The notes under the pieces were generated by a model. It had not been told where the DNA came from, ran no database searches, and saw only the letters and a program-made list of their open reading frames with translations. From the NCBI GenBank assembly GCA_001029635.1, contig CP011209.1:618435-682434 (forward strand): a DNA stretch of 64,000 nucleotides, given 5' to 3'. Position numbers and translations under genes: made by a program. Below are positions 1,248-51,293 of the stretch, in pieces; position 1 is the stretch's first letter, and each line of letters begins with the position of its first letter. The stretch comes from Candidatus Wolfebacteria bacterium GW2011_GWB1_47_1 (GTDB lineage Bacteria; Patescibacteriota; Minisyncoccia; UBA6257; UBA9933).

Positions 1248-1557
1248 CAGCATTTTTTTGTTGTCAAACATAGTTTTAGGGTTGTGAACCTGGATCCCGT
1301 GTCGTGGCACGGGATGACATACGCATTGCCATTCCGACCCACGAGCCTGAATCCAGAGTCCTATAGGGTAACATCACGGGTGCAAAAACTCTGGATCCCG
1401 TGTCGGAGCACGGGATGATAACTATGTTCCGCTACTATGGTGTATGTTTTCGCTCGCATGTCTTTTTCCAAGAACCGGGAAGGGTGAATGTGGTGGCAAA
1501 TAGTATCGCCTGCTATGACGCTAATCTTTTGTCCGAAATATGCGTTGGTTGAGTAAA
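1248..1557 (+). repeat. copy 1 of a ~200-nt conserved noncoding element (second copy at 50814-51017), here with a 101-nt internal insertion flanked by a duplicated 28-nt hairpin module
   Basis: about 95 percent identity to 50814-51017 outside the insertion; perfect 8-bp stem atcccgtg/cacgggat at 1294-1315 and again at 1394-1416. Confidence 0.85.
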
Positions 1558-3168: not shown

Positions 3169-4279
3169 ACTATTCAACAATCGAAGGGGTGGGCATGCCC
3201 CGGATCATGTTTTTTTATGGACCCTTGGCATCCTTGTCGTTTTTGGGATCCTTATGCTTTCTAGTGCTTCCTCGGACCTGGGAAAGATTAAGTTTGATGA
3301 CACTTTTTTTTATCTGAAGCATCAGATCTACTATGGTCTTTTGCCGGGGATCGCCGGGTTTTTATTCGCGTCGTTCTTGTACTACAAACGATGGCAAACT
3401 ATGGCGTTATATTTGCTTCTCGTGAGTGTTGGCATGCTTTTGTTGGTATTTACCCCGCTTGGTATGCATTCGGGCGGGGCGACGCGGTGGATTAATATTG
3501 GTCCTGTTTCATTGCAACCTGCAGAATTGCTGAAGCTTACTTTTATCATTTACATGGCCGCATGGCTGAGTGGTAAGCGGACTAAACGACAAACGAGCTT
3601 CACTGAAGGATATTTGCCATTCCTTTCGATCTCAGGGTTTATTGCATTACTTATTGTATTACAACCAGCCACTACGACGGTTGCCGTCATTATGATGGCC
3701 AGTTTAATTGTTTATTTCATGAGCGGCGCAAAATTTAAATATATTGCCATGACGGTTGTGCTTGGGTTCGTTGCGCTTGCGATGTTGGTCGCGATAACCC
3801 CGTATCGCATGGAACGTGTCAAGAATTATTTTCGACAAGACAAGGTTGATGTCCTTGGGAAAGGATATCATTTGGAACAGGCGAAAATCGCCATCGGTTC
3901 GGGCGGCGCCATGGGGGTTGGATTTGGTCAATCTACGACAAAGTACAAATTTCTCCCTGAACCGATAGGGGATTCGATCTTTGCCGTTGTTGCCGAGGAG
4001 CTTGGTTTTGCCGGCTCGATACTCCTTATCTCCCTCTATATCCTGCTATTTACACGGGGGCTTCTTATTGCTAGCCGATGTAAGGATAAGTTTGGACAAC
4101 TTGCGGTGATTGGTATTATTTCCGTCGTTGCGATTCAAACGTTTATCAATATCGGAGCCATTTCTGGCATCTTGCCCTTAACGGGTGTTCCATTGCCATT
4201 TATTAGTTATGGAGGAACTGCGCTCGCTATTTTTCTTACCATGATGGGGGTTGTCGTCAATATATCGAAGCATGCATAA
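3155..4279 (+). CDS. ftsW: FtsW/RodA/SpoVE-family peptidoglycan glycosyltransferase (SEDS)
   Basis: 10-TM SEDS protein; adjacency to murG suggests ftsW rather than rodA. Confidence 0.8.
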   Translation: MHMNKLFNNRRGGHAPDHVFLWTLGILVVFGILMLSSASSDLGKIKFDDTFFYLKHQIYYGLLPGIAGFLFASFLYYKRWQTMALYLLLVSVGMLLLVFTPLGMHSGGATRWINIGPVSLQPAELLKLTFIIYMAAWLSGKRTKRQTSFTEGYLPFLSISGFIALLIVLQPATTTVAVIMMASLIVYFMSGAKFKYIAMTVVLGFVALAMLVAITPYRMERVKNYFRQDKVDVLGKGYHLEQAKIAIGSGGAMGVGFGQSTTKYKFLPEPIGDSIFAVVAEELGFAGSILLISLYILLFTRGLLIASRCKDKFGQLAVIGIISVVAIQTFINIGAISGILPLTGVPLPFISYGGTALAIFLTMMGVVVNISKHA

Positions 4280-4607: not shown

Positions 4608-4703
4608 TGCGCGCCTCCTATAAAAGTAGGATATAGATCAAAATACTGTAATATATTTACCATATTTTTATAATATTGTCAACATGATGTATACTGAATC
4701 TAT

Positions 4704-5879
4704 ATGAGAATACTTTTTACCGGGGGAGTTACCGGGGGGCACATCATGCCTCTTATATCCGTCGCCGAGAAATTGCCTATTGTGGCACAGTCGAGAGGCA
4801 TTCCATCACTTGAGTTTTTTTACCTTGGCGTGCCGGGAATGTATGCGCAGGAGCTTACTTCTAAGGGGATTACTGTTTCCCGTGTTGCTTCCGTAAAGAT
4901 GCGTCGTGGAGCGATCATCCGTAATATTATCGAACTTCCGCTTTTAATCGTTGCTATTATACAGGCGCTTTGGCGCGTGTATTGGATCATGCCTGACGTC
5001 CTCTTTTCAAAAGGAGGACCGGGGGCATTGCCTGTTGTATTGGCATGTGCCTTCTATCGTATCCCGATCATCATTCATGAATCCGATTCTGTTGCGGGTC
5101 TTACTAACCTTGCTTCTGCCCGTTTTGCCAAACGTATTGCAATTGCCTATGCGACCGCAAAAGAGTCGTTTGTCGGTACTCCTGCTAGCGATGTTGCGCG
5201 GGCTGCCATTGAGCAAAAGATCGCGTTGATCGGCAATCCTATTCGTAATTTTTTCTTAACCTCTTTTGATACGACTGATCGCGCGACTGTAAAACGCATC
5301 ATGGATTTTGATCCTGCAAAGCCCCTCCTGGTTGTTATCGGGGGGTCTCAGGGGGCTGTGCGCATCAACGAATTCCTTCTTTCAATTGCAGAAGATTTAC
5401 TTACGCGCAATATTCAAGTTTTGCATCAAACAGGGGTCAACAATATTGGCTCCGTAAAAGGTGATCTTGCGCTTGTTATGAAAAAGTATTCAAACATGTA
5501 TCAGCATGCGTATCGGGCTGTTCCGTATTTTGAAGAAGATATAAAGGATGCCTATTGTGCTGCCGACATCGTGATCTCTCGGGCGGGGAGTGGGTCGATT
5601 TTTGAGATTGCAGCCATGGGCCGTCCAGCCATCCTTATTCCTTTGCCGCAAGAGATATCGCGCGACCAGGTAAAGAACGCATTCGAATATGCCGCGACTG
5701 GAGCCGCGATCACCATCGAAGAATCTAATCTGACCCGAAATATCTTCCTTGATCAGTTAGATCGGTTGTTGGCTAATCCGACAATGCTTGCCTCGATGGC
5801 AGCCGCGGCAAAGGCATTTTCCCGTCCGGAGGCTGCGGAAGTATTAGCCAAAGAGATTGTTCATTTGGGACGCCGATAA
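4704..5879 (+). CDS. murG: undecaprenyldiphospho-muramoylpentapeptide beta-N-acetylglucosaminyltransferase
   Basis: MRILFTGGVTGGHIMPLISVAEKL N-terminus, GT28 architecture. Confidence 0.85.
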   Translation: MRILFTGGVTGGHIMPLISVAEKLPIVAQSRGIPSLEFFYLGVPGMYAQELTSKGITVSRVASVKMRRGAIIRNIIELPLLIVAIIQALWRVYWIMPDVLFSKGGPGALPVVLACAFYRIPIIIHESDSVAGLTNLASARFAKRIAIAYATAKESFVGTPASDVARAAIEQKIALIGNPIRNFFLTSFDTTDRATVKRIMDFDPAKPLLVVIGGSQGAVRINEFLLSIAEDLLTRNIQVLHQTGVNNIGSVKGDLALVMKKYSNMYQHAYRAVPYFEEDIKDAYCAADIVISRAGSGSIFEIAAMGRPAILIPLPQEISRDQVKNAFEYAATGAAITIEESNLTRNIFLDQLDRLLANPTMLASMAAAAKAFSRPEAAEVLAKEIVHLGRR

Positions 5880-7893: not shown

Positions 7894-9354
7894 ATGGAAC
7901 CACAGATTGATATACAGACCGGCCAGGAAATTCGCGTGCGTATTGCTCCGTCACCCACGGGTCTTCTCCATTTTGGAACGGCCCGGACAGCTCTATTTAA
8001 CTGGCTTTTTGCACGGCACATGGGGGGGAAGTTCATCCTGCGTATTGAAGATACTGACATAGAGCGATCAACGAAGGAATTCGAGGAAGATATTGTTACC
8101 GGACTGCGGTGGCTTGGTTTTGATTGGGATGAGGGTCCTGATAAGGGTGGCCCCTTTGGTCCATATCGACAATCTGAACGGCTTGATATCTACGCCCACT
8201 ATTTACAACAGCTTCTTGATGAAGACAAGGCATATCATTGTTTTTGTACGAAGGAACAACTTGATGTCGATCGACAGGCGATGCAAACTCAGGGCACTAC
8301 GCCTATTTATGTCGGCCGTTGCAGTGCGCTAACCAAAGAAGAACAGGTTCAGCGTATCACTGCCGGCGAAGCATCCGTTATTCGATTGCGTGTTTCGGAA
8401 GGAGTAATCGAGTTCCATGATATTATTCGTGATGTCGTTACTGTACAGTCCGCATTGATCGGCGATATTATTATCGCTCGCAGTCTCGATCTTCCGCTCT
8501 ATAACTTTGCGGTTGTGGTTGATGACTATGAGATGAAGATCTCCCATGTCATCCGCGGCGAGGATCATATTTCCAATACGCCAAAGCAGATCGTCGTGCA
8601 ACGCGCACTTGGTTTCGCCACTCCGGAATATGCACACCTGCCATTGATCCTTGCCCCCGATCGCAGCAAGCTTTCAAAGCGATACATTGAAACGTCATTG
8701 AATGATTTTAAAGCGCAGGGATACCTTCCTGAGTCGTTAGTCAATTTTATGGCGTTCATCGGATGGCATCCTACTGATGATAAGGACGTTATGGCGCGCG
8801 AAGAGCTGATTGCAGAGTTTGATCTCGAACGTGTGCAGAAAGGTGGAGGGGTGTTCAATCTTGAAAAATTGGAATGGTTGAATGCGCAATACATTAAGCG
8901 GCTACCGGTCGGAATCCTTGTCGATGAATTGATGCCATTCATTCCGCAGGAATGGAATACGCAGCGTGCGCTTTTGGAGCGCGTTGCAATAGTAGAGCAA
9001 GACCGCTTGAAGCGACTGACTGATTTTGTCGAATCTGCTGCATTCTTTTTTGCATTGCCTGATTACGAGGCCGATCTATTAGCATGGAAAGGTGCCGATG
9101 TCTCAATGACTAAGGGTCATTTGCGGGCCGTTTTGGATATCTTACGAAACGCTCCCGAGAGTCAATTTACCAAGGATGCCCTTGAGACGCTTCTTATGCC
9201 TCTGGCTGAAGAAAAGGGCAGGGGAGATATACTGTGGCCCTTGAGGGCTTGTTTGAGCGGAAAAAAGGCATCCCCAGGACCATTCGAGATCATGCCAGCA
9301 CTTGGAAAGTCCGAAGTGATCCATCGGATCGAAGTTGCGATAGAGAAATTATAA
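7894..9354 (+). CDS. gltX: glutamyl-tRNA synthetase
   Basis: RIAPSPTGLLHFGTARTALFNWLFARH...FILRIEDTD class-I HIGH region; KLSKR motif. Confidence 0.9.
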   Translation: MEPQIDIQTGQEIRVRIAPSPTGLLHFGTARTALFNWLFARHMGGKFILRIEDTDIERSTKEFEEDIVTGLRWLGFDWDEGPDKGGPFGPYRQSERLDIYAHYLQQLLDEDKAYHCFCTKEQLDVDRQAMQTQGTTPIYVGRCSALTKEEQVQRITAGEASVIRLRVSEGVIEFHDIIRDVVTVQSALIGDIIIARSLDLPLYNFAVVVDDYEMKISHVIRGEDHISNTPKQIVVQRALGFATPEYAHLPLILAPDRSKLSKRYIETSLNDFKAQGYLPESLVNFMAFIGWHPTDDKDVMAREELIAEFDLERVQKGGGVFNLEKLEWLNAQYIKRLPVGILVDELMPFIPQEWNTQRALLERVAIVEQDRLKRLTDFVESAAFFFALPDYEADLLAWKGADVSMTKGHLRAVLDILRNAPESQFTKDALETLLMPLAEEKGRGDILWPLRACLSGKKASPGPFEIMPALGKSEVIHRIEVAIEKL

Positions 9355-22508: not shown

Positions 22509-22632
22509 ATTGACAGTGTTATTATGTTAACGAGTTAACGGGTTGCGCGTTAGGCATCCCACCGAATCGACTACTCTAATTATATACTTCCGTGGAAAAT
22601 TTAACACTGCGATCGATCACCGTAAAACAAAA

Positions 22633-22652
22633 AACGCCCCGGGAGGGGCGTT
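22633..22652 (-). terminator. terminator module aacgcccc-ggga-ggggcgtt (family copy 1)
   Basis: T-run on minus strand; downstream of the 22669..23022 gene. Confidence 0.65.
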
Positions 22653-22668
22653 GCGGATTTGCGACAAC

Positions 22669-23022: not shown

Positions 23023-23098
23023 CTAGTCTCCTCCACTCTCTATGTGATGATATACTAGGTCTAGTGTGTCTTATTATTCCGGGTTTGTCAAAACAAAA

Positions 23099-23118
23099 AA
23101 CGCCCCGGGAGGGGCGTT
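23099..23118 (-). terminator. terminator module aacgccccgggaggggcgtt (family copy 2, identical stem-loop)
   Basis: seen in sequence. Confidence 0.65.
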
Positions 23119-23132
23119 GCTGCGACGAAGGG

Positions 23133-23480: not shown

Positions 23481-23566
23481 ACTACATCTCTCCTTTCTGT
23501 GGCTTGCTATGAACTAAAAGTACCTTAATTCTAAATATTTTTCCTGTCAATTTATTTGGTTAAAAA

Positions 23567-23586
23567 AACGCCCCAGGTGGGGCGTT
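23567..23586 (-). terminator. terminator module aacgcccc-aggt-ggggcgtt (family copy 3)
   Basis: seen in sequence. Confidence 0.6.
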
Positions 23587-23600
23587 GGATGCGTGTCTTG

Positions 23601-27286: not shown

Positions 27287-27375
27287 CATACCATCGATGA
27301 AATTGAATCAATAGCCCTCTTGTATAAATATACGTGTTTCTCACGTAAATGGTTCAGTCGGGAATCGATGTAAGT
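27287..27375 (-). pseudogene. about 90-bp diverged duplicate of an internal queA segment (queA codons ...GETRIFIQEGYRFNFIDGM...)
   Basis: first 57 nt nearly identical to 29777-29833, the rest diverged; frame disrupted. Confidence 0.7.
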
Positions 27376-29629: not shown

Positions 29630-30667
29630 TCAGTATATCAACATACCATCTCCAAATGAAAAGAATCGAAACTTTCGTTTAATTGCAATCTTGTAGAGCT
29701 TGAAGAGTGTATCCTTGCCGATCAGTGCCGCAACCAGCATCAAGAGGCTGGATTGTGGCACGTGAAAGTTGGTTACCATACCATCGATGAAATTGAATCG
29801 ATAGCCCTCTTGTATAAATATACGTGTTTCTCCTGTTAAACGTTTCAATTGGGAATCGATACAGGCTGACTCAAGTGTTCGGACTACTGTCGTACCTACT
29901 CCGATAATGGGGCGGCCTTCCTCCTTCGCCTTGTTGAGAAAGTTTGCCGTCTGCTTGTCTATTGAAAATGATTCGGTGTGTAGCGCGCCGGTATCGAGAT
30001 GCTCCTGCGTAAGTGGCGCAAATGTACCAATGTTTACATGGAGTGTTATAAAGCGAATGTCTACCCCCTGCTTCTGCAGCTTTTTTAATAGGCGATCAGT
30101 AAAATGGAGCGATGCGGTTGGTGCTGCGACTGAGCCGGCATGCTTAGCAAATACCGTCTGGTATTTTTTACGCAATTCGCGTTCGTTGAGTGGCGATTCT
30201 TTTATGTAAGGAGGGATCGGCGTGATGCCATGGCGATCAAGTATCGTATTGAGCTGCTGTAATGGAAACGATGGCTTAAGTAGATAATATTTTCCTTCTT
30301 GTTTTGCAACATTAAAAAATAAGCCACTTGTGATCCGGACATTGGTTCCTACTTCGAGCTTGCGATCTGACATAGCGCGGATTACATCTCCCTCTTGGGC
30401 AATATAAAGGATGCGCGCGGTTCCTCCTGTCGGTTTGGTAACCGTCAGGCGCGCGGGAAGAACTTTTGTTTGGTTGAATACCAATACCGCGCCCTTTGGC
30501 AGGTATTCCCCTATATGCGCAAAGGTCGTTTCAGTGATCGAATCGGCATTTCGATCGTATACCAAAAGTTTGGCGCTATCGCGGGGCGATGCGGGCTTTT
30601 GCGCGATCAGCGTTTCTGGAAATGCGTAATCGTATTCTTTGAGTATTTTTTCTAGTGGTTTTGACAT
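29630..30667 (-). CDS. queA: S-adenosylmethionine:tRNA ribosyltransferase-isomerase
   Basis: PIPPYIKE motif and C-terminal ...FFSFGDGMLI; start at the first ATG with no overlap. Confidence 0.85.
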   Translation of the reverse strand: MSKPLEKILKEYDYAFPETLIAQKPASPRDSAKLLVYDRNADSITETTFAHIGEYLPKGAVLVFNQTKVLPARLTVTKPTGGTARILYIAQEGDVIRAMSDRKLEVGTNVRITSGLFFNVAKQEGKYYLLKPSFPLQQLNTILDRHGITPIPPYIKESPLNERELRKKYQTVFAKHAGSVAAPTASLHFTDRLLKKLQKQGVDIRFITLHVNIGTFAPLTQEHLDTGALHTESFSIDKQTANFLNKAKEEGRPIIGVGTTVVRTLESACIDSQLKRLTGETRIFIQEGYRFNFIDGMVTNFHVPQSSLLMLVAALIGKDTLFKLYKIAIKRKFRFFSFGDGMLIY

Positions 30668-30671
30668 CGGC

Positions 30672-31193
30672 TTACGGACGGAGGTATTCTTTGTTGATCT
30701 CGATCCGCTCATCGATAATTGAATTCGGATCGTTCATCCAGATCTTTGAGGGAGCTATCTTATATAATCTATAGGTGTTCTCATTGAGCAATTTTTTCAA
30801 TCCCGTATTGAATGATTTTGTTGCACGTGCGTAGGGATATGTCCGTTTGAAGTAGGTTAATGATACCTCTGGTATTTCTAAAAGTGTTACCCTTTTTGCT
30901 GTTCCTTCGATCTGTAACCCTACCCCATCCCCTATCAATTGATGGGAATCGAATATCGCCACTGCAACGCTTTTGTTCTGCCCGATATTCACACAATGTT
31001 TTGAGCGGATATGGGAAACGAAATATAAATTCAGATCATTGTCGTATGCATATACAACCGGAGATACCCATGCCGTACCGTTTTTGCCGGCACTTCCAAT
31101 CGTCATGTATTGGTTGCTCTCCAGTATCTCTTTTGCCAATTTTTGCACATCGATTGCCATAGGATTATATTTTTCCCTTTTTAATCTCTTCAC
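30672..31193 (-). CDS. pyridoxamine-5'-phosphate-oxidase-like FMN-binding split-barrel protein
   Basis: PNPOx-like fold signature in the N-terminal half. Confidence 0.55.
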   Translation of the reverse strand: MKRLKREKYNPMAIDVQKLAKEILESNQYMTIGSAGKNGTAWVSPVVYAYDNDLNLYFVSHIRSKHCVNIGQNKSVAVAIFDSHQLIGDGVGLQIEGTAKRVTLLEIPEVSLTYFKRTYPYARATKSFNTGLKKLLNENTYRLYKIAPSKIWMNDPNSIIDERIEINKEYLRP

Positions 31194-32301
31194 GCACTTT
31201 CTTCACGAATCCGTGGAAGAAGTACATGTTGTGGAATGTGAGTAACTTAAGTGGCGTTATTTCGTTTGCCTTCAAGAGATGTGTGATATACCCCCTGCTG
31301 TAGTTTTGACATACAAAACACGAGCACTTTGGATCGAGGGGTTTTTTATCCAATAAAAATGTTCTTTTTTTCAAATCCAAGCGCCCTTTCGACGTAAATG
31401 CCATACCATGCCGCGCGTAATGCGTCGGAGCGATGCAGTCGAATGTATCGATGCCTGACTTCATGATCGGGATGATATCGTCGAGATGTCCGATGCCGAG
31501 TAGGTGGCGCGGTTTATTTTCTGGTAGTTTCTTGGTTACGATATCGAGCATGCCCGTCATCGAGCCTTTGTCTGCTCCGAATTCTCCTCCAATACCGAAG
31601 CCATCGAATGGCAGACTTCCGATAAATTCTGCACTTTCGGTCCGTAGATCCTTAAACTTTCCTCCTTGTACAATACCGTAGAGTGCCTGTTTCGACTTTT
31701 TTGTCTTGAGACAAACCTTTGCCCATTCGTTAGTATGCTCGAGCGACTTTTTTGTATATGCGCGGTCGGCCATCGGCGATGTACATTCGTCGAATGCAAA
31801 GATAATATCCGCGCCGATTTGTTCTTGTATCTTGATCGATTCTTTTGGCCCGAGAAACATTTCGCTACCATCATGATAGGAGCGGAACATAACCCCGTCC
31901 GGTGTTATGCTAAGTAGCTTGGGTTGTTGGCCAAGCTCGATGATATTTTCGCTTTCCTTTTTTAGAATCTTACCGGTCTGGAAGTCCCGACCGAACCCAA
32001 GGCTAAATACTTGAAATCCGCCCGAATCCGTCATAATCGGACGTTTCCAATTCATGAATTTGTGCAGACCCCCGTGCTTTTTAAGTACGGCTTCGCCTGG
32101 ACGGATGTGGAGATGATAGGTGTTAGCGATCAGTAATTGTGCGCCTGTCGCCTCGACCTCCTCGGATGTAAGCGTTTTAATAACCCCCTGGGTTGCTACC
32201 GAAACGTAGGCAGGTGTCTCCACTGTGCCATGCGTTGTTTTGAGCATGCCTATGCGCGCCTTGCTCTTCGCCGATCGTTTTTTGATTTTGAATTCGATCA
32301 T
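31165..32301 (-). CDS. tgt: queuine tRNA-ribosyltransferase (tRNA-guanine transglycosylase)
   Basis: TIM-barrel TGT with zinc site CSCFVCQNYSRGYITHL. Confidence 0.9.
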   Translation of the reverse strand: MIEFKIKKRSAKSKARIGMLKTTHGTVETPAYVSVATQGVIKTLTSEEVEATGAQLLIANTYHLHIRPGEAVLKKHGGLHKFMNWKRPIMTDSGGFQVFSLGFGRDFQTGKILKKESENIIELGQQPKLLSITPDGVMFRSYHDGSEMFLGPKESIKIQEQIGADIIFAFDECTSPMADRAYTKKSLEHTNEWAKVCLKTKKSKQALYGIVQGGKFKDLRTESAEFIGSLPFDGFGIGGEFGADKGSMTGMLDIVTKKLPENKPRHLLGIGHLDDIIPIMKSGIDTFDCIAPTHYARHGMAFTSKGRLDLKKRTFLLDKKPLDPKCSCFVCQNYSRGYITHLLKANEITPLKLLTFHNMYFFHGFVKKVREEIKKGKI

Positions 32302-32334
32302 AGGATTATCAGTATGCGCTAAACACCTTAAAAA

Positions 32335-35022
32335 TCAAGATGTTTTTTGCTTTTCATGAGTAAATATAAGGTATTTTGCCAATTCAATGAGTAGAATTTC
32401 AATGATCCCCGCAGTGATGATAACCGCCCAGGGCCGCCATCCGAGCGACACGGTTCCCATAATGGTCTGCATACCCGGGATATAGATGGCAAATCCGAGC
32501 AGTGCCAATCCTGCGACAATTGATCCATTGATCGCCTTATTTGAAAATACCCTTCTGTGAAATATGGATGTTTTAAGCGATCTGATGCACAGTACCAAAA
32601 GCAACGAATCAAAACAGGAGAGGGCAAAGACTGCGGTGCGTGCCAAACTTACATCTTCCGTTTTGCCAAGAAATGCTGCATACAGTCCTACCGCCATCGT
32701 TCCCGTCACGAAAAAGATGAATACTAGCCACTGCTTCAGGGCGGGGGTCAATATTGATTCATGCGGATCGCGGGGCGGTTCCTGCATGATTCCAAAACGG
32801 TCCCGCTCGGTCGTCAGCGCAATATTAGGGAGGCCGTCTTCTACCACGTTGATCCAGAGCAACTGCGTTGCCAGTAATGGAATCGGCAGTCCGAACGAAA
32901 TAGTCGCGATAAACAGAAAGAGTTCCGCAAAACTATCGGAGACAAGATAGACGAATATACGGCGTATATTATTAAACATGATTCTCCCCTCCTCAATCGT
33001 CTTCAATACTGTCTTAAGACTATTGTCGAGTAGAACGATATCGGACGCTTCGCGTGCTGCATCTGTTCCTGACCCGAGTGCTATACCCACATCGGAGGTT
33101 TGGAGTGCCGGGGCGTCGTTCACACCATCACCGATCATGGCAACTACTTCCCCGTTCTTTTGCAGTGCCTGCACGATGCGTAATTTGTGGTGTGGTGATA
33201 CCCGCGCGTAAAGACATACCGACTTTGCAACCTTTGCCAGTTCTTCGTCCGTCATTGCCTCGATATCTGCTCCTTCCATAATACATGACTCTGCTGACGG
33301 TATACCCACCTCATTGGCGATCGTGCGTGCCGTCAAGCGGTGGTCCCCCGTGATTAATACCGTTCGGATACCCGCTTTGCGTGCATCCTGTATGGTATGT
33401 CTTGCGTCCGAGCGCAACGGATCTTTAATGGCAATAAGTCCTACGAGCGTAAGGTCGTTTACCAGTTCCGATACAGCCTGATATGATGGGAGTCTTTGTA
33501 GTGTTTTGCGAGCGCATGCGATTACGCGGAGTCCTGTGGAAGTTGTCATTTCCATATGGCGGATGATGCGCTCGCGTTCGGGATCTCCAATGGGATGATG
33601 CGCGCCATTTTTATCAACCGATGTTGCCAGAGCGGTGAGCTGTTCGGCCGCACCGATGATCAATAGTTCAAACGTTCCTTTCGCTGTGCCAAATACCGTT
33701 GCCGCGTACTTTGTCTCCGATTCGAATGGTGCCATATCCTCTATCCAGCGACCTTGCCAGAGCTCATTGCGGTCGACTCCTGCCTGGATGGCTGCCAGAA
33801 GCAGTGCTTGTTCCGTCGGCGTTCCGCGAATAATCCAGTCTTTTAATTCGTCTTTTGGATTTTCTATATACGCTTCATTGACGAGCGCCGCGATTTGCAA
33901 TGATGTAATGTGCGAATCTGTCGGTTCTCCATTTGTTGCCAGATCTTTTATGTCGTTTTCTTCCGCGATTGGTAATTCATGCGTTGCGGTCAGGATGTGA
34001 CTTACCTGCATCGTTCCTTGAGTCAAGGTTCCTGTCTTGTCTGTGCAGATCACCGTTACGCTGCCAAGCGTTTCCGTCGCGGCCAATTTACGCACAAGAC
34101 CTCTCTCCTTGAGAATGCGGCGCATGCCCATAACCAACACAATCGTTATCGCAGGCAGCAACCCTTCCGGAATAGCCGACGCCGCGAGTGCAAGCGATGC
34201 GATGAAAATATCAGTAAACGGTTCACCGCGCGCAACCCCTAGTGCGATGATCAATACGACGATGCCACTGATGACCGCACCCAAGACGTTTGACATATGG
34301 CCGAGCTTTATCTGGAGCGGTGTGGGCCTCCGTTCTTCTTCGCGCAAGGACGATGCGATCTTCCCGAATTCGGTATCTCCCCCTGTAGCGACGACCAGAA
34401 GCGTCGCGCGTCCTGTTTCGACGGTTGTTCCCATGAATGCCATATTGCGCTGTTCGAAGACGGGTGCTTCCGCGGCGATCGTGCCCGTACTTTTTTCTAC
34501 CGGAGACCACTCGCCCGTGAGTGCCGATTCATTGACCGTCAATCGGGTTGCCGTGATAATGCGCGCATCAGCTGGAACCTTATTCCCTGCCTTTACCATA
34601 ATGACATCACCCGGTACCAATTCGGCGGCGTCTATCTCTCTTCGATTGCCCGCTCGTATGACGCTTGCTACCGTGCGTGCCATGCTGCGCAACGACTTAA
34701 GTGCTTCGTTCGCCTTGTCCTCCTGTAAAAAACTTACGATGCCATTCAATAACAAAACTGCAACCATAAAGCTCCCATCGATGTAGTGCTGTAACGCAAA
34801 TGAGATGATCGATGCACCAACCAGGATGTACATCAATGAATTATTAAATTGTTCAATAAATATACGTAGGCGTGAATATGACGCGCCTTCCGGCAGAACA
34901 TTCTTGCCGATCTTTGTCGCGAGACCATACGCCTGGTCATCTGAAAGGCCGCTGGGGCCACTTCCGGTAGCCTCATATACTTCTTCCGCAGTCAGTTCGT
35001 GCCAAAGGATTTTAATTGCCAT
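32335..35022 (-). CDS. P-type cation-transporting ATPase (type II, Ca2+/Mg2+-like)
   Basis: DKTGTLT phosphorylation motif, TGDHRLTA, GDGVNDAPAL. Confidence 0.85.
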   Translation of the reverse strand: MAIKILWHELTAEEVYEATGSGPSGLSDDQAYGLATKIGKNVLPEGASYSRLRIFIEQFNNSLMYILVGASIISFALQHYIDGSFMVAVLLLNGIVSFLQEDKANEALKSLRSMARTVASVIRAGNRREIDAAELVPGDVIMVKAGNKVPADARIITATRLTVNESALTGEWSPVEKSTGTIAAEAPVFEQRNMAFMGTTVETGRATLLVVATGGDTEFGKIASSLREEERRPTPLQIKLGHMSNVLGAVISGIVVLIIALGVARGEPFTDIFIASLALAASAIPEGLLPAITIVLVMGMRRILKERGLVRKLAATETLGSVTVICTDKTGTLTQGTMQVSHILTATHELPIAEENDIKDLATNGEPTDSHITSLQIAALVNEAYIENPKDELKDWIIRGTPTEQALLLAAIQAGVDRNELWQGRWIEDMAPFESETKYAATVFGTAKGTFELLIIGAAEQLTALATSVDKNGAHHPIGDPERERIIRHMEMTTSTGLRVIACARKTLQRLPSYQAVSELVNDLTLVGLIAIKDPLRSDARHTIQDARKAGIRTVLITGDHRLTARTIANEVGIPSAESCIMEGADIEAMTDEELAKVAKSVCLYARVSPHHKLRIVQALQKNGEVVAMIGDGVNDAPALQTSDVGIALGSGTDAAREASDIVLLDNSLKTVLKTIEEGRIMFNNIRRIFVYLVSDSFAELFLFIATISFGLPIPLLATQLLWINVVEDGLPNIALTTERDRFGIMQEPPRDPHESILTPALKQWLVFIFFVTGTMAVGLYAAFLGKTEDVSLARTAVFALSCFDSLLLVLCIRSLKTSIFHRRVFSNKAINGSIVAGLALLGFAIYIPGMQTIMGTVSLGWRPWAVIITAGIIEILLIELAKYLIFTHEKQKTS

Positions 35023-37395: not shown

Positions 37396-38637
37396 TTATT
37401 CACTGCGAAGCGCCTCCATGGGGCTTTTCCGCGCTGCCTGTTCGGCGGGAAAAATACCAAATATAAAACCGACAATCATCGCAACTACTGCCCCGATCAG
37501 GGCTCCTTCAAAGGGAAAGAAAAATCTGAAATCGATGGCATATATCTCCCCCAAAATGACCGTTAGTAAAACGCCCCCTCCCCATCCAAGCAGGATGCCG
37601 ATCACTGCCCCTGTCATGGTCAGTATGAGCGCTTCAAAAAGAAACTGGCGCAATATGTCTTGATCGGTAGCGCCAACGGCTTTGCGCAATCCTATTTCAT
37701 GCGTCCGTTCCGTAACTGATACGAACATAATATTCATAATGCCGACGCCGCCAACGACCAATGAGATCGCGGCAATCGTTGTAAGAAGAATGGTTAGGAT
37801 ATCGGTGATCGTCGTAAGCATCGCCGCGGCATCTTCCATTGTCATGGTGTAGAAATCATCCTTGGAAATATCCTTAATATCGTGACTCTCGCGCATCGTC
37901 GTTTTGATATCCTTTACCATCGAGTTGATCACGGTTTCCGTTTTTGCCTCAACCATTATATGGCTAATGAAATGTACGCCCATGACATATAGTTGTACGG
38001 TTGTGTAGGGCATTATGAACGAATCGTCGTATGCCGCAGCTGCTCCTGACCCTTTCTTTTTTAAAATACCCACGACTCGATAGTTCTTATCCTTGATCTT
38101 TATGTGCTTTCCGATGGGATCCTCTCCCTCGAACAGTTTTTCTGCAACCTTACTTCCGATAACCACAACGCTGTTCCGTTGCGCTACATCCTCGTCTGTG
38201 AATGTTTCGCCACTGGTAAGCTCGAGTTGAAATAACCGAAAGATGACTCCCTCACCTCCCAATGCCGGCCCGGCAAACAGTTGCGATCCGAATGTTGCCG
38301 TCACGCTGCTTTCCATGTACGGCATAACCACGTTTGCGTCGGGTACGTTTTCTTTTCTCCTCAGTGCTACAATATCCTCTTCTTGAAGTGAATCGTTCAT
38401 AATAGCGCCACTAAATCCTGAAAACCCCTTGGGTTGTTTACCTGGAAGTACAAAAACATTTTTAGGACCAAAACTTTGCACTTCTCGAATGACTAATTCC
38501 TGTGCACTTGCCCCGATTGCCAGAATAAGAATAATCGACGCTATCCCGATTACGATGCCTAAAATAGTCAGGAGCGAACGTGATCGGTGCATGACGACTC
38601 CCTCATATGCAATTTTAATTCTATCTTTGTTTGTCAT
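37396..38637 (-). CDS. ABC transporter permease (MacB/FtsX family)
   Basis: MacB-like periplasmic core plus FtsX C-terminal domain; start at the ATG coupled to the upstream stop (TGAtATG). Confidence 0.75.
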   Translation of the reverse strand: MTNKDRIKIAYEGVVMHRSRSLLTILGIVIGIASIILILAIGASAQELVIREVQSFGPKNVFVLPGKQPKGFSGFSGAIMNDSLQEEDIVALRRKENVPDANVVMPYMESSVTATFGSQLFAGPALGGEGVIFRLFQLELTSGETFTDEDVAQRNSVVVIGSKVAEKLFEGEDPIGKHIKIKDKNYRVVGILKKKGSGAAAAYDDSFIMPYTTVQLYVMGVHFISHIMVEAKTETVINSMVKDIKTTMRESHDIKDISKDDFYTMTMEDAAAMLTTITDILTILLTTIAAISLVVGGVGIMNIMFVSVTERTHEIGLRKAVGATDQDILRQFLFEALILTMTGAVIGILLGWGGGVLLTVILGEIYAIDFRFFFPFEGALIGAVVAMIVGFIFGIFPAEQAARKSPMEALRSE

Positions 38638-38638
38638 A

Positions 38639-39880
38639 TCATTCGTAGCGGAGCGCCTCCATCGGACTTTTTTTTGCCGCTTGCCGTGCGGGAAAAATAC
38701 CAAAGACGAATCCGACAACCGTTGAAACGATCAACCCAGCGATGGAGCCGCCAACCGGAAACGTGAACGAAAAGTCTATACCAAATGCGTATTTTATTAT
38801 GTATGCAAGCAGAATACCAATAGTAGCCCCAATCAAAACCCCAATTACTCCGCCACTGAGAGTCAGAATAATAGCTTCTGATAAAAACTGATCCAAGATG
38901 TCTTTGTTTGTTGCCCCTAGTGCCTTGCGGAGTCCGATCTCCCGCGTGCGCTCCATGACGGATACAAGCATAATGTTCATGATTCCTACTCCACCAACGA
39001 CCAACGAGATCGCGGCAACCGCAGAAAGGAGAATGGTTAGTATGTTTGTGACATTCCCGATGCGCTGTACGATATCATCCTGCGTCATAATAAAGAAGTC
39101 ATCTCTGCTTGGATCGTCAATATTGTGATTGTTGCGCAAGAGCGTCTCGATGTCACGGGAAACGTTTTGTATATTCGCTTCCGTATCTGCTTCCACGACC
39201 ATGCGTTGAAAATATTTAATTCCTAAAATATGTTGCTGTACGACCGTATAGGGTACTACTACGGCTTCGTCAAAATTAACAAAGGATCCCTGACCTTTCT
39301 GCGCAAATACCCCCATTACCCGATAGTTTTTATTTTTGATCTTGATTTTTTTGCCAATAGGTTCTTCCGTTGGGAATAGTTCCTCCGCAACTTTCTTGCC
39401 AATGACTGCGACCTCCTCCTTTTGGCTTACGCTTTCGTCAGGAAAAAAATCACCTTGGGCCATCTTGAGGTCAAATAATCGGATAATATCGGGCGTGCTT
39501 CCCATAACCAGCCCTGCATAGGATTCGTTTTCGAAAATCGATATTATGTTTCCAAATACGATCGGAGTCACTGATGCCGCATTGGGTACGTTTGCTTTTT
39601 TTTGGAGGTCATTAAGGTCTTTTTCGCGAAGTGAATCCGTAAACAGTGTTGAGCCCGCCCCGCCAACGTCCGTCGGAGCCTTCCCAGGGACAACAAATAC
39701 ATTCTTGGGCCCCATATTCTGGATCTCTCCTACAATAAGTTGTTTGCCGCTTTCGCCTAGTGCTATAACGACGATGATCGCCCCGATGCCGATGACAATC
39801 CCGAGAATGGTCAACAAAGAACGCGATCGATGCGTCGCCAATCCCACTGCTGCCATACGTACCGTGTCCCATGTCTGCAT
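38639..39880 (-). CDS. ABC transporter permease (MacB/FtsX family), paralog of the previous
   Basis: same architecture. Confidence 0.8.
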   Translation of the reverse strand: MQTWDTVRMAAVGLATHRSRSLLTILGIVIGIGAIIVVIALGESGKQLIVGEIQNMGPKNVFVVPGKAPTDVGGAGSTLFTDSLREKDLNDLQKKANVPNAASVTPIVFGNIISIFENESYAGLVMGSTPDIIRLFDLKMAQGDFFPDESVSQKEEVAVIGKKVAEELFPTEEPIGKKIKIKNKNYRVMGVFAQKGQGSFVNFDEAVVVPYTVVQQHILGIKYFQRMVVEADTEANIQNVSRDIETLLRNNHNIDDPSRDDFFIMTQDDIVQRIGNVTNILTILLSAVAAISLVVGGVGIMNIMLVSVMERTREIGLRKALGATNKDILDQFLSEAIILTLSGGVIGVLIGATIGILLAYIIKYAFGIDFSFTFPVGGSIAGLIVSTVVGFVFGIFPARQAAKKSPMEALRYE

Positions 39881-50720: not shown

Positions 50721-50813
50721 CTAACACTCCGCTAACGCACATTTCGGCCAAAGTAATTTACAATACCCTAATAGGGCTCCGGTTACATTGTCATATCGGC
50801 GGAGGCCGGTATC

Positions 50814-51017
50814 CAGCATTGTTGTGGAAAAATAGTTTTAGGGTTGTGAACCTGGATCCCGTGTCGGAGCACGGGATGACAACAATGTTCCGTTACTATG
50901 GTGTATGTTTCCGCTCGCATGTCTTTTTCCAAGAACCGGGAAGGGTGAATGTGGTGGCGAATAGTATCGCCTGCTATGACGCTAATCTTTTGTTCGAAAT
51001 ATGCGTTGGTTGAGTAA
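50814..51017 (+). repeat. copy 2 of the ~200-nt conserved noncoding element (no insertion)
   Basis: aligns to 1248-1317 plus 1419-1557. Confidence 0.85.
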
Positions 51018-51022
51018 CTAAT

Positions 51023-51049
51023 AAAAATCCTCTCATCGAGAGGATTTTT
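51023..51049 (-). terminator. terminator aaaaatcctctc-atcg-agaggattttt
   Basis: follows the PspC-domain gene on the minus strand. Confidence 0.65.
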
Positions 51050-51050
51050 A

Positions 51051-51293
51051 TTATGCCGCGTTTTCTTCCGTAGTTTTCTTTGCTTTAGCTACCTTTTTAT
51101 GCTCACTTCGATGTGGAACAATGAGTGCGGCGAAGATGTACGCGATCACTCCCGGGAATATTCCCGTAAAGACTACAACCAGTATCCATACGACCCGCAA
51201 CAATACGGGGTCGAGATCAAAATATTCACCTACTCCTCCGATCACACCGCTGACCGCTTTATTCGATTCGCTTTTGTATAATCGCTTTGTCAT
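51051..51293 (-). CDS. PspC-domain membrane protein
   Basis: KAVSGVIGGVGEYFDLDPVLLRVVWILVVVF. Confidence 0.75.
   Translation of the reverse strand: MTKRLYKSESNKAVSGVIGGVGEYFDLDPVLLRVVWILVVVFTGIFPGVIAYIFAALIVPHRSEHKKVAKAKKTTEENAA

Follow-up and report, generated by a model that had tools for sequence, protein, structure and literature searches.

The locus described here lies near the left end of a 64,000-nt stretch of the genome of Candidatus Wolfebacteria bacterium GW2011_GWB1_47_1 (contig CP011209.1, positions 618,435 to 682,434; hereafter, the window), where a repeat element fills a 4-5-nt gap between the -35 boxes of two divergent promoters. On one side of the element, TTGGAA-N18-TATACT constitutes the promoter of an amidohydrolase gene; on the other, a conserved TTGACA-N17-TTAAAT box on the minus strand, not called by the promoter scan, is the putative promoter of a conserved gene encoding 61 amino acids (aa). 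The tetranucleotide AACA stands on both sides of the element and may represent either microhomology or a 4-bp duplication. A second copy of the repeat is located close to 51 kb in the window, with 96% identity between 1391-1556 and 50852-51017 and 94% identity between 1266-1319 and 50828-50881. Both copies contain an intact, putatively coding open reading frame (ORF) of 42 codons (MFRYYGVCFRSHVFFQEPGRVNVVANSIACYDANLL[S/F]EICVG; 1424-1552 in copy 1, 50885-51013 in copy 2), the repeat ends 4 nt past its stop codon, and an intrinsic-terminator-like hairpin follows the tail of copy 2 at ~51020-51052. Copy 1 differs from copy 2 in carrying two instances of a hairpin-forming module, hereafter hpA and hpB, instead of one. 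In our judgement, this module is likely to be an Ssn-related motif (SRM), a member of the repeat family associated with small GIY-YIG nucleases, and the 1290-1420 region a small mosaic of three SRM units.

The module, CTGGATCCCGTGTCG(TG/GA)GCACGGGATGA, spans 28 nt, and its duplication in copy 1, reported in an earlier note on this DNA, was confirmed both in the sequence and with a repeat finder. The two instances (CTGGATCCCGTGTCGTGGCACGGGATGA at 1290-1317 and CTGGATCCCGTGTCGGAGCACGGGATGA at 1391-1418) start 101 nt apart and are identical at 26 of 28 positions, the sole differences being TG (1305-1306) versus GA (1406-1407), both within the hairpin loop. A third instance at 50852-50879, in copy 2, is identical to the 1391-1418 module. 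These were the only three module copies recovered in the window when allowing for up to 3 mismatches, and no match was obtained in 100 dinucleotide-preserving shuffles. The description of copy 1 as copy 2 plus 101 nt, placed between two direct copies of the hairpin, was likewise borne out; the additional 101 nt comprise the 28-nt module and 73 nt at 1318-1390 (catacgcattgcc...gtgcaaaaact). The palindrome CCTATAGG (cctatagg) that had been pointed out in the insert is indeed present at 1360-1367, and is unremarkable for a segment of 73 nt, in which we estimate that ~0.3 palindromes of 8 nt would be expected. As single-stranded DNA (ssDNA), each module is predicted to fold into an 8-9-bp stem with a 6-nt loop (dG -7.9 kcal/mol, z -2.4 to -4.2). 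The stem is formed by CCCGTG/CACGGG and the motif is carried by the minus strand, on which it reads 5'-TGTCAT-CCCGTG-loop-CACGGG-ATCCAG-3'.

This arrangement corresponds closely to that of the repeats targeted by Ssn nucleases. In Neisseria, the Ssn target NTS (Neisseria Transformation Sequence; CGTCATTCCCGCGMAVGCGGGAATCYRG) is a 28-nt sequence that contains the dRS3 repeat, and the SRMs form a wider family that can be searched for with the pattern HGTCWYN(0-2)YYVSBRHN(0-5)WNVSBRGN(0-2)RNCYNB (Chenal et al. 2025, PMC11893778). The same study reported that small single-domain GIY-YIG genes (ssn, cd10448) are flanked by SRMs, as exemplified by the NTS-ssnA-NTS layout, that Ssn binds only ssDNA and only one of its strands, cutting a few nt upstream, 5' of the GTCAT side, and that the critical bases are the upstream GTC, required for cutting, and the C directly after the palindrome, required for binding. 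In the window, the published pattern matches exactly at 1290-1319 and 50852-50881, both on the minus strand, and with one base off at 1391-1420 on the minus strand and at 50789-50816 on the plus strand. Only one further, unrelated match was found, inside a gene, and first-order Markov simulations yielded a mean of 0.18 chance matches per 64 kb. The GTCAT and ATC-C flanks, including the critical GTC and C, are present in hpA and in the SRM of copy 2; hpB departs from the pattern by one base because of a strain single-nucleotide polymorphism (SNP) at 1419 that converts GTC to ATC, and in strain contig L004 (loci fetched from other genomes are designated here by L numbers) the C at 1419 keeps the GTC and restores the match. 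Altogether, the 64 kb contain three strict or near-strict SRMs, one related SRM and one relic, all of them at two loci, and no additional SRM was found in ~17 kb of extra flanking sequence. The resemblance to the SRM/NTS-Ssn system thus extends to the 28-30-nt hairpin, the oriented flanks (GTCAT upstream, ATC-C downstream), the exact match to the published pattern, the wide range of phyla, the clustering in intergenic regions and the small GIY-YIG genes that these hairpins flank, including one in a Wolfebacteria genome. The differences lie in the stem, which is TCCCGCG/CGCGGGA in Neisseria versus CCCGTG/CACGGG with a 6-nt loop in the window, in the small number of copies in this stretch and in the host, which belongs to the Candidate Phyla Radiation (CPR; Patescibacteria), a group that is not mentioned in the main text of PMC11893778. 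The parts recognized in the two copies, with the basis for each assignment, are as follows.

1266-1289, plus strand: leader AAAcATAGTTTTAGGGTTGTGAAC, common to copy 2 (repeat alignment)
1290-1319, minus strand: SRM hpA, minus-strand sequence TGTCATCCCGTGCCACGACACGGGATCCAG, plus-strand loop TG at 1305-1306 (exact SRM pattern match; DNA hairpin, dG -7.9)
1320-1324, no strand: head-to-head spacer from hpA to the relic (sequence)
1325-1356, plus strand: putative decayed, opposite-facing SRM relic ATTGCCATTCCGACCCACGAGCCTGAATCCAG (likeness to the L053 hairpin, shared prefix)
1357-1390, plus strand: 34-nt tail-to-tail linker AGTCCTATAGGGTAACATCACGGGTGCAAAAACT, which holds CCTATAGG at 1360-1367 (linker likeness)
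1391-1420, minus strand: SRM hpB, minus-strand sequence TATCATCCCGTGCTCCGACACGGGATCCAG, loop GA at 1406-1407 (one base off the SRM pattern; folds)
1419-1467, no strand: tract of differences in strain contig L004 (begins on the side of hpB where Ssn is predicted to cut)
1421-1556, plus strand: tail, common to copy 2 and to a third context (L134/L135), with right end GGTTGAGTA (alignment)
50789-50816, plus strand: opposite-facing SRM TGTCATATCGGCGGAGGCCGGTATCCAG upstream of copy 2 (one mismatch to the SRM pattern)
50817-50851, plus strand: 35-nt tail-to-tail linker of the copy-2 doublet, whose right 24 nt equal the copy-1 leader (alignment)
50852-50881, minus strand: copy-2 SRM with GA loop, single counterpart of hpA and hpB (exact SRM pattern match)
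50882-51017, plus strand: copy-2 tail (alignment)

Copy 1 can hence be parsed from its sequence as the SRM hpA, a 5-nt spacer, a relic SRM, a 34-nt linker and the SRM hpB, and copy 2 as an opposite-facing SRM, a 35-nt linker and a GA-loop SRM. The copy-1 leader (24 nt) corresponds to the right part of the copy-2 linker, which joins two opposite-facing hairpin repeats, and nearly the same unit as that at 50789-50816 is found in other Wolfebacteria (L124, L106 and others). The relic in copy 1 has changed GTC into GCC and has a broken stem that no longer folds, and it is identical at 26 of 30 positions to an intact hairpin in L053, TTGTCATTCCGGCCCGAGAGCCTGAATCCA, which is likewise located just upstream of a CCCGTG SRM; its ATTGnCAT prefix is common to other Wolfebacteria SRMs. 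The ends of the 34-nt linker (AGAGTC...GCAAAAACT) resemble the ATCCAGAGTCT-N-GCAGAAAACACT-GGATCCCGTG linkers of L021, L032 and L071, and linkers of this kind are found in related Wolfebacteria. By these likenesses, the 73-nt insert is made up of repeat parts, a decayed SRM and a linker, and not of foreign sequence. If the cut position reported in PMC11893778 also holds here, the predicted Ssn cut zone for hpA would fall at 1320-1324 on the minus strand. A third degenerate SRM that seemed to be present in the tail (~1489-1518), and which would have implied a period of ~100 nt, was discarded, as matches with up to 3 mismatches occur at ~1 per kb in control sequence.

The distribution of the hairpin beyond the window was assessed by scanning one genome per species for GGATCCCGTGN6CACGGGATGA (26 nt). 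The exact core was found at at least 119 loci in ~10 phyla, for which we estimate a chance expectation of ~1. The matches listed include Thermoanaerobaculia, Wolfebacteria and at least 5 other CPR groups, Bacteroidota, Fibrobacter, Zixibacteria, Dehalococcoidales, several Pseudomonadota (among them Rickettsia endosymbionts), Campylobacterota and others, and among them the flanks are also conserved, with CT preceding the motif and CA or CG following it. Within these same matches, the commonest loops in other Wolfebacteria are TCGTGG and TCGGAG, with 4 copies each, which are the loops of hpA and hpB. In 2.9 million viral contigs (IMG/VR), the 26-nt pattern had no exact match. Elsewhere, the module occurs as singletons and as inverted pairs. 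The favoured neighbour is an opposite-facing SRM located 12-35 nt upstream, which accompanies 13 of 137 strict-pattern matches, compared with 2 for each of the other arrangements, and further opposite-facing SRM neighbours are visible by eye; pairs in the same orientation, 109-154 nt apart, were found in L012, L087, L113, L117 and L119. In three Bacteroidetes metagenome-assembled genomes (L015, L016, L080), inverted SRM doublets combine one TG-loop and one GA-loop hairpin, a pairing reminiscent of the Y and Z types of palindromic unit in the bacterial interspersed mosaic elements (BIMEs) of Escherichia coli.

The fetched loci were also searched for GIY-YIG proteins by means of six-frame translation, a motif search and hidden Markov models. 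Among the matches listed, ORFs of 94-116 aa with a GIY-YIG domain (PF01541, E 1e-12 to 1e-17) are located within ~500 nt of the hairpin in 6 of the 119 loci (L024, L049, L050, L092, L106, L110), and more distant ones occur in L126 and L118. An all-against-all comparison of neighbouring ORFs revealed no recurrent family besides these small GIY-YIG proteins. In L106 (Wolfebacteria RIFOXYD12_FULL_48_21), a 100-aa GIY-YIG gene is tightly flanked by SRMs in a unit at 4625-5065 that resembles an insertion sequence: an SRM (4625-4654) is followed after 24 nt by the gene (4678-4977), then after 8 nt by an inverted SRM (4985-5012) and by yet another SRM. This putative SRM-ssn-SRM arrangement, in a CPR genome, is the published NTS-ssnA-NTS layout (PMC11893778). 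A cognate Ssn encoded elsewhere in the genome may act on the hairpins of the window.

Loci orthologous to locus 1 were obtained via homologues of the amidohydrolase. The neighbouring proteins are unchanged on many groundwater and sediment contigs, and the two-hairpin form of copy 1 is present in nine near-identical strain contigs (L001, L002, L004-L010); copy 2 is unchanged in L136 and L137. Contigs L003 and L138 were considered as shorter alleles and rejected, since the former has an NN gap at 8070-8080 and the latter a 104-nt assembly collapse at ~560. The repeat breaks or collapses public assemblies of this organism and constitutes an assembly hazard. In the related species represented by L130 and L131, whose amidohydrolases are 81% and 78% identical, the site is empty and reads TTGTCAA-(4-5 nt)-GTTTTGGAAAA, and the relative represented by L133 (75%) has only an 81-nt spacer at the site (compared regions: L130 2140-2200, L131 3800-3850 and L133 3919-4000 versus 1266-1556 in the window). 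In each of these three related species, the corresponding intergenic site thus lacks the copy-1 element (~290 nt) as a whole, which marks the element as a newcomer at locus 1. Because the element is missing there in its entirety, these relatives are silent on whether the one-hairpin or the two-hairpin form is ancestral, and no fetched locus was orthologous to the copy-2 site. In the 78% relative (L131), the amidohydrolase gene has a distinct SRM-like hairpin, AGATTCCTGCCTTCGCAGAAATGACA, within its 5' leader (3905-3945), which shows an independent gain of a repeat at the same locus.

A third genomic context was identified for the tail, beside parA/parB, in L134 (1-110) and L135 (reverse); these two contigs, both of which end inside the repeat, were the only ones recovered in a metagenome DNA-pattern scan. 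The 14,279 bases aligned between strain contig L004 and the window contain 6 differences, and every one of these lies within 1419-1467, beside hpB. The variants match the third copy, and over 99 nt L004 shows 100% identity to L134. The patch in L004 is either a gene-conversion tract from the third copy or a chimera produced in metagenome assembly.

The loop bases allow the junction of the 101-nt difference to be placed. The single hairpin of copy 2 has the left flank of hpA together with the GA loop and the right flank of hpB, so that the junction lies either within 1290-1304, the 15 nt over which the modules are identical, or at the module's left edge. Excision or insertion at the cut sites predicted for Ssn on the minus strand, which fall to the right of 1319 and 1420, was discarded as the direct source of the difference, since it would leave a TG loop and copy 2 has GA. 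We propose that the 101-nt difference would correspond to one unit of SRM plus spacer, gained or lost via recombination between direct SRMs, and that nicks introduced in transiently single-stranded DNA may promote recombination, gene conversion and the spread of SRM units. Loss in copy 2, by slippage or by homologous exchange between the direct 28-nt repeats, is slightly favoured, because such a loss requires no specialized enzyme and the relic in the interior appears to be old.

Such a layout resembles that of known mosaic repeats, and in particular the Neisseria intergenic mosaic elements (NIMEs), in which dRS3 repeats flank RS segments of 50-150 bp in a dRS3-RS-dRS3 arrangement (PMC1797815), and the BIMEs (PMC2817692). 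As in NIMEs, two palindromic repeats here bracket a segment within this size range (73 nt) and the number of units varies, the two copies differing by one unit; NIME repeats have also been proposed to act as recombination sites. The window module (ATCCCG-N10-CGGGAT) departs from the dRS3 consensus ATTCCCN8GGGAAT, which is matched exactly in the related Wolfebacteria loci L056 and L062 (GGATTCCCGTTTTCACGGGAATGACA). In contrast to NIMEs, the arrays of the window have 2-3 units, the host is not a Neisseria and the 73-nt segment in the place of RS is itself made of a putative decayed repeat and a linker. The repetitive extragenic palindromes (REPs), BIMEs and REPINs (PMC2817692, PMC3116915) share with the elements described here extragenic hairpins in alternating orientation, short linkers, inverted doublets as a unit and, as presumed driver, a nuclease gene that is present once and bordered by repeats of its own.

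That the hairpins are ordinary REPs in alternating orientation, driven by a RAYT (a Y1 HUH transposase) in place of Ssn, would suit the alternating orientation, the short linkers and the BIME- or REPIN-like inverted doublets, yet we deem it highly improbable: the hairpins match the SRM pattern and are flanked by GTCAT and ATCCAG, and their recurrent neighbour is a small GIY-YIG protein and not a Y1 transposase, although no dedicated search with a RAYT profile was made. A GTAG/GTGG head is typical of REPs, and the window hairpins lack it. Direct 28-nt repeats around a unique 73-nt segment, with a hairpin-forming repeat of CRISPR-like length, might also suggest a classical transposon or miniature inverted-repeat element with a 28-bp target-site duplication, or a degenerate CRISPR array with a single spacer. 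The earlier note had raised a target-site-duplication-like event and a one-spacer repeat-spacer-repeat unit; the transposon and CRISPR readings carry next to no weight in our assessment. A target-site duplication should be unique to its site and enclose an element with defined ends; the module is instead an independent, dispersed repeat (at least 119 loci in many phyla) with conserved, orientation-giving flanks (GTCAT...ATCCAG on the minus strand), and the 73-nt interior has neither transposon ends nor terminal inverted repeats. Moreover, since TG and GA are distinct loop alleles, the two commonest in other Wolfebacteria among the matches listed, hpA probably did not arise by a recent duplication of hpB in situ. 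A repeat-spacer-repeat unit is formally an accurate description of copy 1, but its CRISPR meaning does not stand: CRISPR arrays have at least 3 regular repeats with spacers of 25-50 nt and usually cas genes, whereas here there are two repeats and a 73-nt spacer, an atypical combination, the module is dispersed singly and as inverted pairs, and the Pfam lists of neighbouring genes show no cas or transposase genes within ~5-10 kb.

The search for the insert as an independent element, which the earlier note had suggested, was positive in part. The combination of opposite-facing hairpin, AGAGTC...GCAGAAAACACT linker and CCCGTG hairpin recurs in other Wolfebacteria; the 73 nt themselves were not recovered in any near-identical free form. 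A further account is that a 101-nt unit of one SRM and 73 nt, circular or linear, or a doublet of relic, linker and SRM behaving as a miniature element devoid of ssn, integrated at the resident SRM of a copy-2-like ancestor, in which case copy 1 would record the growth of an array. We regard it as a possibility well short of even odds. Tail-to-tail doublets share the arrangement of their ends with the SRM-ssn-SRM unit of L106 and recur in several Wolfebacteria, dRS3 is known to serve as a site of integration in Neisseria (PMC1797815), and a TG loop on the left with a GA loop on the right fits a crossover 5' of the loop. Against this, the interior SRM is decayed and cannot fold, unlike a fresh active element, neither a free nor a further copy of the 73 nt was found, the neighbouring genes include no recombinase and no ssn, and the junction lies away from the predicted Ssn cut sites. 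The difference between the copies may alternatively act at the RNA level, with the hairpin and the insert forming alternative structures 5' of the 42-codon ORF that serve as an attenuator or translational switch differing between the paralogues. The intact ORF and its close fit to the end of the repeat favour this reading, as do the three of four between-copy differences in the ORF that are synonymous third-position changes and the ability of AUCCAGAGU in the insert to pair with ACUCUGGAU at hpB. Once the L004 variants are counted, however, no more than 3 of 6 changes are synonymous, and the pattern of substitutions is uninformative; used as protein queries, the 42-aa ORF and the ORF on the minus strand returned no homologues beyond the same species. 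Rfam yielded nothing meaningful, whether the whole window was searched with gathering thresholds or 1150-1650 by E-value, no tRNA or tmRNA was detected, the RNA fold of copy 1 is no better than that of shuffles (z -1.06), and no promoter was detected upstream. Hundreds of unrelated contexts in many phyla also contain this hairpin, and an RNA-level leader is very improbable. A role of the hairpin as a sigma-70 promoter or as a terminator was likewise discarded, there being no T-run and no promoter call.

The identification of the module as an SRM, and of 1290-1420 as a three-unit SRM mosaic, remains the explanation that we favour. Several observations weigh against it. No ssn-like GIY-YIG gene is encoded in the window or in the ~17 kb of extra flank, and the GIY-YIG proteins that neighbour the hairpin in other genomes lack an NCBIfam family and have only weak matches to UPF0213 in PDB. 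The relic is more than 3 mismatches away from the strict SRM pattern and does not fold, and its putative status as an SRM rests on the 26/30 match to L053 and on its position. Only ~5 SRM-like units are present in ~81 kb, versus hundreds in Neisseria. The SNP patch in L004 may be a chimera of metagenome assembly.

Other repeats are present in the window. A 31-nt terminator-like hairpin, AAAACAAAAAACGCCCCGGGAGGGGCGTTGC, occurs three times (22624-22654, 23090-23120 and 23558-23588) with a spacing of 466-468 nt, and the bodies between its copies are only ~60% alike. A 68-nt repeat with 91% identity is located at 27287-27354 and 29777-29844, and a 223-nt repeat with 71% identity at 37586-37808 and 38829-39051, inside adjacent ORFs of similar size that are possibly tandem paralogues. 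The cumulative GC skew peaks at ~30000-34000, and gene orientation converges on this region, with plus-strand genes to the left and minus-strand genes to the right, which suggests that it is the replication terminus region.

What was an odd local duplication now has a concrete and testable identity as a likely SRM mosaic, and the readings as a transposon scar or a CRISPR remnant are removed. A near-identical hairpin of 26-30 nt, including two loop variants, is spread across ~ten phyla, and the assignment extends the Ssn/SRM system to the CPR, including Wolfebacteria, Saccharibacteria, Doudnabacteria and others. The two copies, one hairpin-plus-spacer unit apart, together with the empty sites in relatives, provide a small natural experiment on the gain and loss of NIME- or BIME-like units. 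On a more speculative note, and we consider this rather unlikely, SRM doublets in the tail-to-tail arrangement (GTCAT-hairpin-ATCCAG, linker, CTGGAT-hairpin-ATGAC) might represent small versions of the SRM-ssn-SRM unit that lack the gene and are mobilized in trans by Ssn through ssDNA. If so, Ssn and its SRMs would form a transposon-like system built on a GIY-YIG nuclease and active even in tiny CPR genomes, and the copy-1/copy-2 difference, the lineage-specific arrival of copy 1 between two promoters and the SNP patch by hpB would be snapshots of its activity, showing the growth of an array beside an existing SRM and nick-induced gene conversion.

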